64,000 nt of DNA from a phage: sequence record OZ335959.1. The stretch is one strand, 5' to 3'. Under the pieces are notes generated by a model. It was not told where the DNA came from, did no database searches, and saw only the letters and a list, made by a program, of their open reading frames with translations. This document shows positions 35,222-53,870 of the stretch, piece after piece. The position numbers were made by a program, and so were the translations under genes. Position 1 is the stretch's first letter; every line of letters starts with the position of its first letter.

Positions 35222-35371
35222 TTACTGCATGACTGTGATAACTGTCATGATAACACGTTGAATTCCGAATGCAAGAAGACCTCCTGCTACGGCTGGAACA
35301 ACACCTAAACCCGCTAGTAAAATGCTACCAGATACTAATGCCGCGCTTGTAATACCAATGAATGGACTCAT
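35222..35371 (-). CDS. small hydrophobic membrane protein (49 aa)
   Basis: ORF below track cut-off; ATG overlaps gene 52 stop; Gly/Ala-rich TM sequence. Confidence 0.4.
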   Translation of the reverse strand: MSPFIGITSAALVSGSILLAGLGVVPAVAGGLLAFGIQRVIMTVITVMQ

Positions 35372-36700: not shown

Positions 36701-36841
36701 TTACCATACTAGTGAATGTAGTGCCATAATAACATCAGAAATGAAAAGCACGACTTGAATTAATCCGAACATTACTCCATAATATAGTGCTACCAATAAA
36801 GTAGCAAGGGCTAATGAATAGCCCAAGATTTTCTTAATCAT
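36701..36841 (-). CDS. small membrane protein (46 aa)
   Basis: Hand-translated: MIKKILGYSLALATLLVALYYGVMFGLIQVVLFISDVIMALHSLVW; below track cut-off. Confidence 0.4.
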   Translation of the reverse strand: MIKKILGYSLALATLLVALYYGVMFGLIQVVLFISDVIMALHSLVW

Positions 36842-36992
36842 TAGTAGATAACAACACAAATGTTAAATATGCACACATACCCTGGGCTAAAGCTTGTGAA
36901 AACACACTGCTAGCATCGATACAGATAGTTAAAACACATGCTACTATCCAACAAATAAATGAAATAACTCCTAATAATTTTGCGATATTCAT
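36834..36992 (-). CDS. small membrane protein (52 aa)
   Basis: Hand-translated: MNIAKLLGVISFICWIVACVLTICIDASSVFSQALAQGMCAYLTFVLLSTND. Confidence 0.4.
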   Translation of the reverse strand: MNIAKLLGVISFICWIVACVLTICIDASSVFSQALAQGMCAYLTFVLLSTND

Positions 36993-36999
36993 ATTTTCC

Positions 37000-37080
37000 T
37001 CACTGGCGTCCGAAGACGCCTTTGGTTTTAAGATTGTTACGATAGAACTGCATCACATGTTCGTTATGGAAATTACTCAT
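37000..37080 (-). CDS. stp: Stp peptide (26 aa), activator of host PrrC anticodon nuclease
   Basis: Hand-translated [26 protein letters not shown], matching T4 Stp as I recall it. Confidence 0.8.
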
Positions 37081-37246
37081 ACACACCACACATTTTGCAT
37101 AAACGTTCAAAACAGATAAATCCGCCACCTACACACATCACGACAGCCACATTATCATTAAGAGGTAGACCTAAAGCCATAAAGATTCCGGTCACTGTGA
37201 ATAAGGCTAAAACTAATAGGTAACCCATTACAAATAGAGCTTTCAT
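37073..37246 (-). CDS. small membrane protein (57 aa)
   Basis: Hand-translated [57 protein letters not shown]; start overlaps ndd stop, stop overlaps stp start. Confidence 0.4.
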
Positions 37247-37701
37247 TAGTATGCCTGTAAAACAAATTTAAAGTTATCAGCCAACATACGATTCATTTCT
37301 TCAAGTGTTTGATACTCAGAATGATGATTACGAGTAAACGCTAAAGCTAACTGACCTTTTCCAAATCCTGTCGTCAAAGGTTTCATCTTAGAAGCAGGAA
37401 GATAAAATACTGTATATGGAACATTATTATTTGCAATAGTACGCGCAAGCTGAGACCGACGCTGACGAATATGACTTAGAACTGCACTGAATCCTTGCTT
37501 AGAACGCTGATTACCTACATAAAATCGTGCAGATACACACGGACTATCAAATGGACCACCAAATTTACTCACTAAAAAGTAAAATCCAGGTGTAGATAAA
37601 ATGTCTTTATGTGGAGTTCCAAAAACCCATTCACCGCCCTTGATTGTACCAATAACAGTAGCACCTGCATTATTCAAATCAGTAACAGTCATGTATTTCA
37701 T
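37246..37701 (-). CDS. ndd: Ndd nucleoid disruption protein
   Basis: 151-aa ORF, same length and position as T4 ndd. Confidence 0.75.
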
Positions 37702-37760
37702 ATTAATTTCCTCTAATTATTTTCTACTCCAAGGCCGCATGAATACACACGGCCGATAAA

Positions 37761-37976
37761 TTAATCGTCGCAGTCGACGCTCAATTCCCAGAACTCTTCT
37801 ACAGTATAAGTTTCAGTATCGTTTTCAATACAGAAACGTTCATTACTGTTATTTGCTAAAGTAGCATTAACTGTCATTTTCTCGCTAGTGCTCTTAAGAG
37901 GTGAAATACGAATTAACTGATCACCACTATCCAAGCAAAAAATTTCGCCAACTTTTACATCTTTAAAAATTTTCAT
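37761..37976 (-). CDS. hypothetical protein (71 aa)
   Basis: ORF. Confidence 0.45.
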   Translation of the reverse strand: MKIFKDVKVGEIFCLDSGDQLIRISPLKSTSEKMTVNATLANNSNERFCIENDTETYTVEEFWELSVDCDD

Positions 37977-38091
37977 AATTCACCTCAGGGAGTATAAAAT
38001 CCAAATGCAGTTGTTGACCATCCCATCCAATACGGAAAATTTGCACCAACGTAAAACATGAGAATATAAAACCAACCACTCAGCAAATTCA

Positions 38092-38310
38092 TCATTTTAC
38101 ACCATTCCAAATTGTTTCAACCACAGATTTTAAGCCATTTTGATGAATGTCCATTCCGACAACTGCCATCAAATAAATTCCAACTACAACTGAACCTAAG
38201 GCAAAAATCAGCATGAAAATGAATAAAGCTGGAAAAATATTATCGAAAAACCATTCAATAAATGTAAAAGCACTGCGTTTACGCTTCATATTTTCCTCAC
38301 ATAAATCCAA
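38092..38310 (-). CDS. small membrane protein (72 aa)
   Basis: ORF with two hydrophobic segments. Confidence 0.45.
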   Translation of the reverse strand: MDLCEENMKRKRSAFTFIEWFFDNIFPALFIFMLIFALGSVVVGIYLMAVVGMDIHQNGLKSVVETIWNGVK

Positions 38311-38410
38311 AGTAAGCGTTTAATACATCAATCATTAAAACGATTGGGAATATACTCAAAACTACTAGTATTATAACTACATTCCATATAGCTTTAACAA
38401 TCTTTTTCAT
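38297..38410 (-). CDS. small membrane protein (37 aa from MKKIVKAIW; track ORF runs further upstream through the promoter)
   Basis: Internal ATG at 38408-38410 lies just downstream of promoter module 38435-38470. Confidence 0.35.
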   Translation of the reverse strand: MKKIVKAIWNVVIILVVLSIFPIVLMIDVLNAYFGFM

Positions 38411-38434
38411 TTTCTGTTCCTCCGTAGTTGATAG

Positions 38435-38470
38435 GGTAATAATACCACAGAGGAACAGTCTTGTAAACAA
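38435..38470 (-). promoter_or_regulatory. early promoter module (-35 GTTTAC 38463-38468)
   Basis: Conserved module. Confidence 0.45.
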
Positions 38471-38653
38471 CTTTTTTAAAAATATTCGTAATAAATGTGA
38501 ATACCAATCACCACTGCCGAAACTTGCGCAACCCACCACGCACAAGCAATAAGCACAGAATTCAAAATTTTCATAATAACCTCATTACAAAAGTAAATGT
38601 TAAACAAATTAATGGAATACTAATTAACCAAACAAAACACCACCACAATGAAC

Positions 38654-38917
38654 TCATAGTTCAATCTCAGCGATTTTCATTTCATTACTATTAATAGCCG
38701 CTTTAAGACTATCTGAAAGAATTACATTCCAGTGGTCATTCATATGACCATTAACTAAGCGTGTAATTTCTTCGGGAGTTGAAAAATAAGGCGTATCAGA
38801 CTCCCAATGCGATAATCCCAAGCGAGTATAAATCATACCTTCATCATCGCTAGAATATTCAACTGACACAAACTCATCAGTTATTTTATGTTTAGCGTAA
38901 TAAAATTTAAATTTCAT
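38654..38917 (-). CDS. hypothetical protein (87 aa)
   Basis: ORF downstream of promoter module 38940-38976. Confidence 0.5.
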   Translation of the reverse strand: MKFKFYYAKHKITDEFVSVEYSSDDEGMIYTRLGLSHWESDTPYFSTPEEITRLVNGHMNDHWNVILSDSLKAAINSNEMKIAEIEL

Positions 38918-38939
38918 TTTTACTCCTCCGTAGCTGATA

Positions 38940-38976
38940 GTTGTATAGTACCACAGTCCTTGTGGTATGTAAACCG
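38940..38976 (-). promoter_or_regulatory. early promoter module (-35 GTTTAC 38969-38974)
   Basis: Near-identical to modules at 18455 and 35130. Confidence 0.5.
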
Positions 38977-38990
38977 TTTTGTGAAAATTT

Positions 38991-39548
38991 TTAAATGGAA
39001 AGATACCATCCGTTGTAGTTGCTTTTTCTTACAACCTTACGAAGGTCTTCTCTATCACCAATGAACTTCGGAGTGTACTGGATGACACCTGGATGAATTT
39101 CTTTAGTGTTGAATATAATTATACAGTCAGCGACCTGATGATTCAGAATGGGCCCTAGATTTATTCCAGAACCATATGGATACTCTCCGCTGCATCCTGT
39201 TGTTACAGAAATCCAACGTGAGTCAGTTTGATGTGTCTTAACTTCTACACGAAGCCCGCAGTATCTTGGATGCGCCAATACATCCCATGCATATGTATAC
39301 GGGTCATTAACATCTTCTTGGCCTTTGTTAACATACCCGCTTAGCCAATCTGCTACAAAAAACTCTGCGTACACCGCGATACGGCATCTTTCGATAACTT
39401 CTGCTTTATCCTGATTTGGATTTTGTTTTAAAGAGTATCTTGCTGTATCAGCAATTTTGACCTTCATTTCACTAGTCAAGTCACTGTTCGATAGGGTAAA
39501 TGTCGGAATCTGAAATAGTCTCTGTAAACCCGGATTCGTTTTCTGCAT
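38991..39548 (-). CDS. denB: endonuclease IV
   Basis: 185-aa ORF, same length and position (below rIIB) as T4 denB. Confidence 0.7.
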   Translation of the reverse strand: MQKTNPGLQRLFQIPTFTLSNSDLTSEMKVKIADTARYSLKQNPNQDKAEVIERCRIAVYAEFFVADWLSGYVNKGQEDVNDPYTYAWDVLAHPRYCGLRVEVKTHQTDSRWISVTTGCSGEYPYGSGINLGPILNHQVADCIIIFNTKEIHPGVIQYTPKFIGDREDLRKVVRKSNYNGWYLSI

Positions 39549-39810
39549 TTAGACTTTCCTTTTTACCGCTGAGATAAGCGTTATATACTTTAAGAGTGCC
39601 GTAATAAATTCGGTCATTTTCATCTAAAGACTCATGGTCAAGTTCATCGAGTTCCTTTTTATCCATGACTATAATATCATTGCAGTAAAGAAACCCAAGT
39701 TTTTCGTGACCAAACTCAAATTTATTGCAGTACACAATATTAGCATGATGATTTCCGTGCAGTTTAATCTCTTTTATGTCGGAATCACCGATATTCATAC
39801 AATAAATCAT
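39481..39810 (-). CDS. hypothetical acidic protein (109 aa)
   Basis: ORF. Confidence 0.5.
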   Translation of the reverse strand: MIYCMNIGDSDIKEIKLHGNHHANIVYCNKFEFGHEKLGFLYCNDIIVMDKKELDELDHESLDENDRIYYGTLKVYNAYLSGKKESLNAENESGFTETISDSDIYPIEQ

Positions 39811-53810: not shown

Positions 53811-53831
53811 GATAGCCTCCGTATACTTCAG

Positions 53832-53870
53832 AAGCTATCATATCATTGTTAGGAAGGAAAGTAAACAACT
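53832..53870 (-). promoter_or_regulatory. early promoter module (-35 GTTTAC 53861-53866)
   Basis: Conserved module. Confidence 0.45.

Follow-up and report, generated by a model that had tools for sequence, protein, structure and literature searches.

Organization of the ndd-denB interval

The window, a 64,000-nucleotide stretch of phage DNA (OZ335959.1), belongs to a Tequatrovirus and shares 93.7-99.1% nucleotide identity with Tequatrovirus genomes. On its minus strand, positions 37985-38657 carry five back-to-back ORFs of 36, 65, 37, 32, and 28 aa. Judged by their sequences, these are the T4 genes ndd.2, ndd.2a, ndd.4, ndd.5, and ndd.6: their products share 92-97% identity with those of T4 and match PHROG families with E-values of 3e-17 to 3e-30. 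Synteny agrees with this assignment: ndd/ndd.1 and denB flank the ORFs as in T4, strand and gene order are unchanged, and 19 Tequatrovirus loci are collinear with this interval. The interval contains the following features.

37246-37701, minus strand: ndd, encoding Ndd
37761-37976, minus strand: ndd.1, 71 aa, soluble product
37985-38095, minus strand: ndd.2 homologue, 36 aa, or 35 aa from a conserved second ATG at 38092
38092-38289, minus strand: ndd.2a, 65 aa
38297-38410, minus strand: ndd.4 homologue, 37 aa
38414-38458, minus strand: PeSL stem-loop with a 15-bp stem
38439-38468, minus strand: T4-type early promoter, GTTTAC-N14-GTGGTATTAT
38476-38574, minus strand: ndd.5 homologue, 32 aa
38571-38657, minus strand: ndd.6 homologue, 28 aa
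38654-38917, minus strand: extra soluble ORF (orf87), 87 aa
38945-38974, minus strand: second T4-type early promoter, GTTTAC-N14-GTGGTACTAT
38991-39548, minus strand: denB, encoding DenB

A first-pass annotation of this DNA had described a cluster of tiny hydrophobic ORFs between ndd and denB. That structural description is borne out by the five minus-strand ORFs mapped here and conserved in relatives, but the annotation did not recognize them as the named T4 genes ndd.2 to ndd.6. Because these genes have long been annotated in T4, the observation is accurate rather than new. The size range proposed at the time, 28 to 72 aa, is right at its lower end; the upper end stems from upstream TTG starts in longest-ORF calls, and the conserved ATG-started products span 28-65 aa. 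The cluster was also correctly said to be split by an early promoter module, a perfect T4-type promoter that sits between the third and fourth ORFs.

Coding status and conservation

Substitution patterns are those of protein-coding genes. Across 19 relatives, variable sites fall 19/10/52 at the three codon positions (6/3/24 in ndd.2a and 1/0/9 in ndd.5), and pN/pS is 0.08-0.12 for four ORFs versus 0.4-2.3 in shifted frames. Individual values are 0.08 for ndd.5, 0.09 for ndd.2a and for ndd.6, and 0.12 for ndd.2, the last against 1.0-1.35 in its own shifted frames; pN/pS of the ndd.4 homologue is uninformative because of its 7 variable sites within Tequatrovirus. Indels are nearly all multiples of three or lie outside the ORFs. 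These patterns indicate that the amino-acid sequence is under purifying selection, and the genes are near-universal in the matching Tequatrovirus records. Conservation of the reading frames in related phages had been named beforehand as a test of the first-pass claim; the frames are conserved, and the claim survives.

Despite their location in a hyperplastic region, each of the five genes is present in 494-662 phage records, and homologues retaining family-specific motifs occur in other Tevenvirinae genera for ndd.2, ndd.2a, ndd.4, and ndd.6. The relatives used for comparison are GenBank phages; a scan of IMG/VR gave 5 loci. Individual genes are disrupted in the T4 reference, in T2 PV648363, and in one metagenomic contig. 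On the plus strand, ORFs are broken or have pN/pS far above 1: one antisense ORF of 65 aa is interrupted in 16 of 20 genomes, another ORF has a pN/pS of ~20, and both were rejected as genes.

The third-position bias, low pN/pS, and frame-preserving indels, together with homologues in other genera, membership of a Pfam family, and coupled starts with Shine-Dalgarno sequences (see below), make it scarcely credible that these open frames arose by chance in AT-rich intergenic DNA; for ndd.2a, ndd.4, ndd.6, and ndd.2 that reading is effectively ruled out. Points in its favour are that the ORFs are very short and omitted by many annotators, that ndd.2 is weakly hydrophobic, and that mass spectrometry-based T4 proteomics detected none of the five products. 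Such misses are expected of tiny hydrophobic peptides with few tryptic sites. No T4 ribosome-profiling dataset was found in a literature search.

The individual micro-genes

The product of ndd.2a, intact in the window, has a basic N-terminus (KRKR) and one transmembrane (TM) helix, and its C-terminal motif, NGLKSVVETIWNG, is conserved. Residues 6-63 match Pfam DUF7248 (PF23906) at 71.9 bits against a cut-off of 27, in agreement with the precomputed annotation of close homologues, and the peptide matches phrog_2401 at 3e-30. In 497 of 500 phage records, tblastn aligns 80% or more of ndd.2a in a single frame, and a profile search recovers 27 representatives (E<1e-3). Other T4-like genera have homologues in the corresponding place, between denB and ndd, and DUF7248 members are also found on metagenomic phage-like contigs outside the denB-ndd context. 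The T4 reference, by contrast, carries a 1-nt deletion that splits the gene into 'ndd.3', a frameshifted N-terminus, and a 40-aa 'ndd.2a'. What is listed as 'ndd.3' in T4 is an artefact of this frameshift in the reference and belongs to the 65-aa DUF7248 protein. A full-text literature search returned no paper on 'ndd.2a'.

The ndd.2 homologue can be read from ATG1 at 38095, but the conserved start is ATG2. Its uncharged, aromatic-rich product contains the motif FYVGxNxPYWxG, is 97% identical to T4 Ndd.2, and matches phrog_4135 at 5e-24. By tblastn, ndd.2 occurs in 519 phage records; 25 of these are Klebsiella phages, with 44-47% identity, and a homologue is also present in Enterobacter phage MY742. 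Of the five genes, ndd.2 is the least robust, being frameshifted in ECO4 and N-terminally trimmed in a51 (2 of 20 genomes).

A basic N-terminus, MKKIVKAIWN, precedes one TM helix with the conserved motif SIFPIVxMID in the ndd.4 homologue, which matches phrog_3098 at 3e-21. T4 Ndd.4 is annotated as 42 aa from an upstream ATG, where the window has ACG instead. Among the 596 records found by tblastn, 102 fall below 80% identity (43 at 60-80% and 59 below 60%), and at 55-61% identity the gene is found in other genera (Gaprivervirus VR26, MX01, and Enterobacter phage MY742).

The ndd.5 homologue, 97% identical to T4 Ndd.5 (phrog_5011, 4e-26), encodes a single TM helix that presents small residues (A12, A16, A20, G24) on one face. 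The 494 phage records that contain ndd.5 are all Tequatrovirus-level, with no distant homologue outside Tequatrovirus among them. The ndd.6 homologue is 96% identical to T4 Ndd.6 (phrog_8851, 3e-17); its one TM helix contains the conserved motif LSIPxIC, and its sole charged residue is near the C-terminus. Its 662 records include 159 below 60% identity and 9 more at 60-80%, and its pairing with the 87-aa ORF upstream is kept in Mosigvirus HX01 and Gaprivervirus VR26.

The product of orf87 is soluble and acidic, has no hydrophobic segment, and matches phrog_2390 at 4e-46. The gene is present in T6, PST, HX01, and VR26 and absent from T4, where 8 codons (MKIAEIEL) remain of it and continue to overlap the start of ndd.6. 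It is part of a variable cassette adjoining denB: between ndd.6 and denB, T4 has nothing, the window and T6 have the 87-aa ORF, PST and SA21RB have 87-aa and 68-aa ORFs, and RB27, CAM-21, and T2 have the 68-aa ORF only.

Pfam has no match for four of the five peptides and NCBIfam no family for any. A PDB sequence-profile search with the DUF7248 alignment also returned no match, and neither PHROG, Pfam, and NCBIfam nor that PDB search relates any of the five peptides by sequence to a protein whose function is known.

Promoters, stem-loop, and operon layout

The window has 13 occurrences of the T4 early-promoter pattern, always on the minus strand, versus 0.12 expected by chance. The promoter at 38439-38468, which T4 shares at this position inside the cluster, has the exact T4 early consensus and scores 10/12 with an extended -10 in a sigma-70 scan, and both equivalent elements are annotated as early promoters in phage SA21RB. 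The two promoter modules, TTTACA-N17-TATTAT and TTTACA-N17-TACTAT, also conform to the PeSL consensus, TTTACW-N17-TAYWAT with an associated stem-loop, described from the hyperplastic regions of T4 and PST (Arbiol 2010; Comeau 2014, PMC4122927). The stem-loop at 38414-38458 folds at -23.2 kcal/mol (z = -4.26), and none of 200 shuffles folds as well; its 5' arm occupies the spacer of the -35 and -10 boxes, and its 3' arm covers the Shine-Dalgarno sequence of the ndd.4 homologue. The second module has a weak 7-bp hairpin (z = -0.35). An Rfam scan of 37200-39600 at E<=1 found nothing above threshold, and a potC match over the PeSL was rejected as sub-threshold at 20.5 versus 44 bits.

The genes probably form two units. 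The first would run from the promoter at 38945-38974 through orf87 and ndd.6 to ndd.5, and the second from the promoter at 38439-38468 through ndd.4, ndd.2a, and ndd.2 to ndd.1, both transcribed immediately after infection from sigma-70-type early promoters. Consistent with this timing, the T4 ndd.2-ndd.6 genes have RNA class 'early', as measured in T4 and not in the present phage (PMC9697503 Table S2). Within each unit, starts overlap or abut the preceding stops, so that translation is coupled. The Shine-Dalgarno sequence is strong for the ndd.4 homologue (GGAGGA, -9.5 kcal/mol), GAGGA for ndd.2a, and GAGG for the ndd.5 homologue, whose start overlaps the ndd.6 stop as ATGA. It is weak for the ndd.6 homologue (-2.7 kcal/mol), the start of which overlaps the stop of the upstream ORF; orf87 is translationally coupled to it. 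The position of the ndd.2 start, at the ndd.2a stop, likewise fits translational coupling. In read-through RNA from upstream, the stem may sequester the ndd.4 ribosome-binding site, while transcripts from the promoter at 38439-38468 would lack the 5' arm. At the DNA level, PeSL elements are points of recombination for cassette shuffling, and the micro-genes sit in a hyperplastic region that such elements appear to bound.

Start and stop codons that overlap throughout, a T4 orf87 remnant that still couples to ndd.6, and the individual dispensability of each gene could also mean that some of the ORFs are translated spacers, in which coupled ribosomes shield the early transcript from Rho termination and decay and pass on to downstream genes such as ndd.1 and ndd, while the peptide sequence is of little importance. 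This is quite unlikely, however, as pN/pS of ~0.1 and motifs kept at 45-60% identity across genera point to amino-acid selection, and DUF7248 homologues stand in unrelated gene contexts.

Membrane character

The best 19-residue Kyte-Doolittle windows of ndd.2a (2.71) and the ndd.4 (3.05), ndd.5 (2.18), and ndd.6 (2.31) homologues represent clear TM helices. The ndd.2 product is moderately hydrophobic, with a best 19-residue window of 1.16, no charged residues, and 33% aromatic content. The products thus probably insert into the host inner membrane, four of them by one predicted TM helix. Of the single or double TM segments that had been proposed, the single TM segment stands in these four and the double does not: for ndd.2a, both hydrophobicity and an AlphaFold2 model (pLDDT 80; helix 4-17, kink at Pro20, long helix 19-64) give one TM segment. 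The basic N-termini of ndd.2a and ndd.4 predict an N-in orientation, which would place the conserved C-terminal motif of ndd.2a on the periplasmic face.

Several assignments were considered and rejected. For an outer-membrane protein, lipoprotein, or periplasmic protein, neither a cleavable signal peptide, a plausibly placed lipobox, nor a beta-barrel is found in these products of 28-65 aa with a single alpha-helical hydrophobic segment. A lipobox-like LIAC is present only in the ndd.5 homologue, and its Cys is residue 11, too near the N-terminus for a normal signal peptide. A holin or antiholin is at odds with the early promoters, the early RNA class in T4, and a neighbourhood that contains ndd and denB and no endolysin or spanin. 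Conserved adjacency raised the idea that DUF7248 is a membrane anchor for Ndd; it was set aside because the motif is predicted to be periplasmic and because cloned ndd alone reportedly disrupts the nucleoid, in work by Bouet and Krisch.

Possible functions

The analysis establishes which genes these are, that they are protein-coding, their promoters, the geometry of their coupling, and their hydrophobic architecture. The preferred reading, given a probability of about 60%, is that the cluster comprises five genuine early micro-genes in two coupled units, encoding accessory inner-membrane microproteins that modulate host envelope components. The products would bind such components during early takeover, whether inner-membrane proteins or the lipid-synthesis machinery, and would act as accessory, niche-specific modulators rather than as enzymes or core replication functions.

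The T4 genes ndd.2-ndd.6 are dispensable in the laboratory: CRISPRi-ART knock-down scores them 'Not Fit' (PMC11879866), and almost every TA site accepts a transposon (10.1101/2025.11.20.689424). Given the lack of a phenotype in two genome-wide T4 screens and six conditions, any function should be conditional.

A more specific proposal is that the micro-genes, or a subset of them, determine the T4-induced synthesis of phosphatidylglycerol (PG) and other phospholipids by binding or de-regulating host phospholipid enzymes. The one lead to a function, an indirect one, is the T4 deletion sa-delta-9, which removes 52.1, ac, stp, ndd, ndd.1-ndd.6, and denB: it is viable with a 50% burst and abolishes the phage-induced stimulation of phospholipid synthesis (PMC6071114). 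PG stimulation is also lost in the partly overlapping deletion rII-delta-DD2 and needs protein made within 5 minutes, and a review places several predicted membrane-protein genes in the sa-delta-9 interval (PMC6071114); ndd.2-ndd.6 are themselves expected to be early and membrane-directed. The effect, however, maps to a 3.4-kb interval of about 12 genes, and strains without dCTPase, EndoIV (denB), and Alc also lack PG stimulation, implicating denB or linked lesions equally (PMC6071114). No peptide resembles any lipid-metabolism regulator in Pfam or NCBIfam, and the proposal is unlikely to hold.

The first-pass annotation proposed roles in exclusion, immunity, or membrane remodelling. That the products serve superinfection exclusion, immunity, or anti-defence at the inner membrane is improbable to a like degree. 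Early, membrane-directed products would suit such roles, as would a neighbourhood rich in host conflict (rIIA/B versus RexAB, stp versus PrrC, ac, ndd, and denB) in a hyperplastic region thought to house adaptive genes (PMC4122927). Yet the PHROG and Pfam matches are solely to the ORFs' own families of unknown function, with no similarity to T4 Imm, Sp, or anti-defence proteins, and T4 has no conditional requirement for the genes under RexAB, RnlAB, CBASS, DarTG1, DarTG2, or minimal medium.

One further resemblance bears on exclusion. The C-terminal motif of DUF7248 resembles a repeat unit of siphophage tape-measure proteins: GLKSVVETIWNGVK in ndd.2a compares with AIKTNVETIWNGIK, which is present in 5-10 copies in those proteins, and ndd.4 has a related KAIWN unit. 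Tape-measure proteins are targets of exclusion proteins in other systems, for example of Ltp of phage TP-J34. The likeness nevertheless amounts to a 14-residue motif, the significance of which depends on repeats. It is a long shot, and well short of the preferred reading, that ndd.2a and ndd.4 are decoys against channel formation in the inner membrane by superinfecting phages, with ndd.2a presenting a single membrane-anchored tape-measure-like repeat on the periplasmic face, or that the cluster is the PG-synthesis determinant. If true, either the decoy or the PG role would be the first function for a widespread family of phage microproteins.

Public annotation and significance

Public annotation of the cluster is inconsistent, with micro-genes missed, merged, or wrongly named. 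All five peptides have exact matches in NCBI and UniProt under 'uncharacterized ... protein in ndd-denB intergenic region', in public clusters that bear T4 names, and the UniProt names of the T4 products read 'uncharacterized 4.4 / 3.7 / 3.4 kDa protein in ndd-denB intergenic region'. One or more micro-genes are unannotated in RefSeq T6, RefSeq PST, L14, and CrRp10 despite intact ORFs. The ORF track that accompanied the window likewise merges or misses several, as had been remarked at first pass. Some RefSeq records use 'naphthalene 1,2-dioxygenase' or a tail-fibre chaperone name for peptides of 36-37 aa that have no Pfam or NCBIfam match; these names are annotation-propagation errors. Many records call the products outer-membrane, lipo-, or periplasmic proteins, and 'outer membrane protein' is unfounded.

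As a re-discovery of annotated T4 genes, the cluster itself adds little. The sa-delta-9 interval is, however, the only mapped locus for T4 stimulation of host phospholipid synthesis, and the cluster offers a small, well-defined target for deletion and lipid labelling.

Comparison with known systems

The ndd.2a product is built like the DUF7248 family, with no substantive difference: the N-terminus is short and basic, there is a single TM helix, and the C-terminus has the pattern NGLKS[VI][VI]Ex[IV]WxG. The element at 38414-38458 is like PeSL in combining an early promoter with a stem-loop between small variable ORFs, with variable cassettes alongside. Unlike the PeSL described, its stem extends over both the promoter and the Shine-Dalgarno sequence downstream instead of forming a terminator that precedes the promoter, and no U-run follows.

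AcrZ, MgtS, and KdpF are bacterial regulatory small membrane proteins. Neither these nor Ac, 52.1, Imm, Sp, and RI of T4 have a sequence relationship to the five ORFs in PHROG, Pfam, or NCBIfam. The likeness to both groups is one of working principle: a product of fewer than 70 aa, with a single TM helix, that is expected to bind larger membrane proteins. Homologues of Ac and 52.1 are encoded 1-2 kb away, within one run of micro-genes.

Gene map and identity

The window phage is T4-like and belongs to the genus Tequatrovirus; its segment 37700-39000 matches 499 phage records, best of all Shigella phage sb4 (99.1% identity). Reading and translating the sequence places every gene of the region on the minus strand:

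37246-37701, minus: ndd, encoding Ndd
37761-37976, minus: ndd.1, 71 aa
37985-38095, minus: ndd.2, 36 aa
38092-38289, minus: ndd.2a, 65 aa
38297-38410, minus: ndd.4h, homologue of T4 ndd.4, 37 aa
38439-38468, minus: early promoter
38476-38574, minus: ndd.5h, homologue of T4 ndd.5, 32 aa
38571-38657, minus: ndd.6h, homologue of T4 ndd.6, 28 aa
38654-38917, minus: orf87, an ORF not in T4, 87 aa
38945-38974, minus: second early promoter
38991-39548, minus: denB, encoding DenB

Gene set and order are identical in the T4 annotation, so the five tiny ORFs that a first-pass annotation had noticed between ndd and denB correspond to ndd.2, ndd.2a, ndd.4, ndd.5 and ndd.6. They are real, and already known as the annotated T4 genes ndd.2-ndd.6. 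The upper length of 72 aa proposed for them is an artefact of longest-ORF calls from upstream TTG codons, the longest product being 65 aa.

Small membrane ORFs extend past ndd (37073-37246, 36834-36992, 36701-36841 and 35222-35371, all minus). A 57-aa ORF with two hydrophobic segments, coupled to the ndd stop, stands where T4 has stp; Enterobacter phage MY742 carries a homologue. Homologues of ac and 52.1 follow, and downstream of gene 52 there is another hydrophobic ORF, of 49 aa. In five compared loci (L010, L015, L016, L018, L020) denB is annotated as 477 nt plus a separate ORF of about 110 codons, versus 558 nt in the window and T4; the shorter form may reflect another choice of start codon, or the endonuclease IV gene may truly differ there. 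Three T4-like genomes (L024-L026) carry a 66-aa ORF of Pfam PF21825 ('Sequestin') between rIIB and denB, at the T4 denB.1 position.

Coding evidence and conservation

Across an alignment of the region from 19 Tequatrovirus genomes (93.7-97.2% identity), variable sites inside the five ORFs number 19, 10 and 52 at the first, second and third codon positions. Pairwise pN/pS is 0.09 for ndd.6h, 0.08 for ndd.5h, 0.09 for ndd.2a and 0.12 for ndd.2, and reaches 0.4-2.3 in the two shifted frames. ndd.4h has just seven variable sites, too few for this test; full-length homologues at 55-61% identity occur in Gaprivervirus VR26, MX01 and Enterobacter phage MY742. Indels are multiples of three or lie outside the ORFs, save a few lineage-specific disruptions, and a search for conservation of plus-strand ORFs found none.

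Searches with tblastn recover ndd.2 in 519 phage records (25 of them from Klebsiella phages, with identity near 45%), ndd.2a in 500 (497 with a single-frame match over at least 80% of the protein), ndd.4h in 596 (102 below 80% identity) and ndd.6h in 662 (159 below 60% identity). The 494 records matching ndd.5h include no distant homologues. Motifs are kept across genera in ndd.2 (FYVGxNxPYWxG), ndd.2a (NGLKS[VI][VI]Ex[IV]WxG), ndd.4 (KAIWN...SIFPIVxMID) and ndd.6 (LSIPxIC). Loss of the reading frames in relatives, which the first-pass annotation had named as fatal to its claim, is not what the comparison found: the frames are conserved. By these sequence criteria the five ORFs are genes, and the notion that they are non-genes is very improbable.

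Annotation errors and lineage disruptions

In NC_000866, the T4 reference, 1 nt is deleted directly 3' of the ndd.2a start codon (window equivalent 38284-38289). In the T4 extract (L001), 'ndd.3' (2549-2629) is a frameshifted N-terminus and the 40-aa 'ndd.2a' (2433-2555) is the other half of the 65-aa DUF7248 ORF; PHROGs lists 'ndd.3' as a singleton because the split occurs in this reference. The ORF is intact in T4 'wild' KJ477684 and 17 of 18 other aligned genomes, the sole exception being T2 PV648363, with a premature stop at codon 45. The T4 annotation used for HIDEN-SEQ gives ndd.3 as 82 nt, not 81, implying that the T4 stock of that study has the extra base too. In ECO4 ndd.2 is interrupted by a 5-nt insertion, and one metagenomic contig has a 2-nt insertion at the ndd.6 end.

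Several public records leave intact ndd.6 and/or ndd.5 homologues unannotated: VR26 (L012, 2143-2226, minus), PST (L009, about 1497-1677) and T6 (L008, about 1497-1678). The VR26 ndd.6 homologue has a TTG start overlapping the upstream stop. Because ndd.5 and ndd.6 are both intact in PST, the published T4/PST 'exchange of ndd.4/.5 for ORF268/269' seems to be a gain of ORF268/269 by insertion, not a replacement.

The names 'outer membrane protein', 'periplasmic protein', 'naphthalene 1,2-dioxygenase' and 'chaperone for long tail fiber formation' are without support for these peptides. Residues 8-11 of ndd.5h form a lipobox-like LIAC, which may be the source of the first label.

Protein features

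A strong hydrophobic window is present in four products, whose 19-residue Kyte-Doolittle scores peak at 2.2-3.1; ndd.2 is uncharged, 33% aromatic and moderately hydrophobic (maximum 1.16). None of the five matched any known-function family in PHROGs, Pfam, NCBIfam or PDB. The 65-aa ndd.2a product belongs to Pfam DUF7248 (71.9 bits; cut-off 27), and its AlphaFold2 model (pLDDT 80) shows a short helix at residues 4-17 and, with a kink at Pro20, a single long helix at 19-64. Single transmembrane (TM) segments, one of two arrangements first proposed, hold for the four products with a strong window; the double arrangement fails for the 65-aa protein, which has one TM helix in the model. DUF7248 relatives have basic residues ahead of the TM helix and an acidic conserved C-terminal motif, from which the positive-inside rule predicts that ndd.2a lies N-in/C-out, with a periplasmic motif. 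The sequence of ndd.5h (38476-38574, minus) reads as a small-xxx-small zipper (A12, A16, A20, G24) on one helix face, a typical pattern for tight helix-helix packing.

A natural in-frame ndd.4/ndd.2a fusion, the 62-aa gp120 of Shigella phage Sf25 (P0007; Pfam PF26889 plus PF23906), joins the N-terminal 28 residues of ndd.4 to the C-terminal half of ndd.2a. The fusion arose by deletion and preserves a TM helix and the conserved C-terminal motif.

The DUF7248 profile has 27 matches at E<1e-3 among 1.84 billion representatives. Twenty-three are 25-76 aa long, a TM-plus-motif architecture being common to the 12 read in sequence. The other four span 820-976 aa, two with a PhageMin_Tail (tape-measure) domain, and all four have 5-10 tandem repeats aligning to the query's last 14-16 residues (e.g. 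AIKTNVETIWNGIK versus GLKSVVETIWNGVK). The tandem repeat ..IKTNVETIWNGIK.. of siphophage tape-measure proteins (P0074, P0078) resembles the DUF7248 C-terminal motif GLKSVVETIWNGVK (window 38101-38133), and a related unit, KIVKAIWN / VKAIWN, opens ndd.4h (38381-38398). A loose motif searched in six frames of the 64-kb window hits ndd.2a and adjoining ndd.4h only, an unfair test in that the pattern was designed post hoc. The resemblance is short and draws its statistical weight from repeats; it may serve as a lead, a hypothesis generator only.

Function

Time-resolved omics of T4 puts the RNAs of ndd.2 to ndd.6 in the 'early' class and detected none of the proteins (PMC9697503 Table S2). CRISPRi-ART knock-down of each is scored 'Not Fit' (PMC11879866 supplement), and HIDEN-SEQ transposon mapping finds all five genes non-essential, with nearly every TA site hit (10.1101/2025.11.20.689424). 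On the best-supported reading, natural selection retains the microproteins, which the phage can do without on laboratory hosts; that the ORFs are translated spacers is improbable. HIDEN-SEQ hits under RexAB, RnlAB, CBASS, DarTG1, DarTG2 and minimal medium are other genes (10.1101/2025.11.20.689424), and a role in exclusion, as originally proposed, or in anti-defence is unlikely.

The T4 deletion sa-delta-9 spans 52.1, ac, stp, ndd, ndd.1-ndd.6 and denB; the mutant is viable, with about half the burst size, and loses phage-induced stimulation of phospholipid synthesis (PMC6071114). Its authors call the ndd.1-ndd.6 products unknown, several being predicted membrane proteins (PMC6071114). That the microproteins are the determinant of this stimulation is a doubtful reading, on a par with exclusion. 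A generic, unspecific conditional envelope modulator ranks as the most likely function. Conservation of motifs family by family argues for specific binding partners, not generic membrane perturbation.

Promoters, coupling and the PeSL arrangement

The early promoter noticed inside the cluster is confirmed by consensus at 38439-38468; it and the second promoter agree at every position with the T4 early consensus GTTTAC-N14-gTGGTAnnAT. A scan of the window that allowed up to one mismatch, with the pattern also written GTTTAC-N15-TGGTAnnAT, gave 13 sites (2814 to 59795), every one minus-strand, where chance predicts 0.12. A conserved leader ending TACGGAGG lies downstream of three of these sites (38419-38468, 38925-38974, 53816-53866).

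Starts overlap or abut the preceding stop at orf87/ndd.6h, ndd.6h/ndd.5h and ndd.2a/ndd.2, and ndd.6h nearly lacks its own Shine-Dalgarno. T4 is without orf87 but keeps an 8-codon in-frame remnant, MKIAEIEL (L001 2994-3020, minus), the orf87 start fused to its last codons. The remnant's stop still overlaps the ndd.6 start, suggesting that translational coupling to ndd.6 matters or is under selection.

A 15-bp stem-loop (38414-38458; -23.2 kcal/mol, z = -4.26) encloses the promoter at 38439-38468, and the GGAGGA Shine-Dalgarno of ndd.4h falls within its 3' arm. This Shine-Dalgarno would be masked in upstream read-through RNA and unmasked in RNA from the promoter itself.

The best-supported reading takes the products as genuine early microproteins, probably inserted in the host inner membrane and encoded by two translationally coupled mini-operons within a hyperplastic region bounded by promoter-early stem-loops (PeSLs). 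This promoter and its stem-loop together form the PeSL arrangement known from the hyperplastic regions of T4-like genomes, where PeSLs are proposed to mediate cassette shuffling (PMC4122927). The ndd.6-denB interval varies in content among close relatives, consistent with that proposal.
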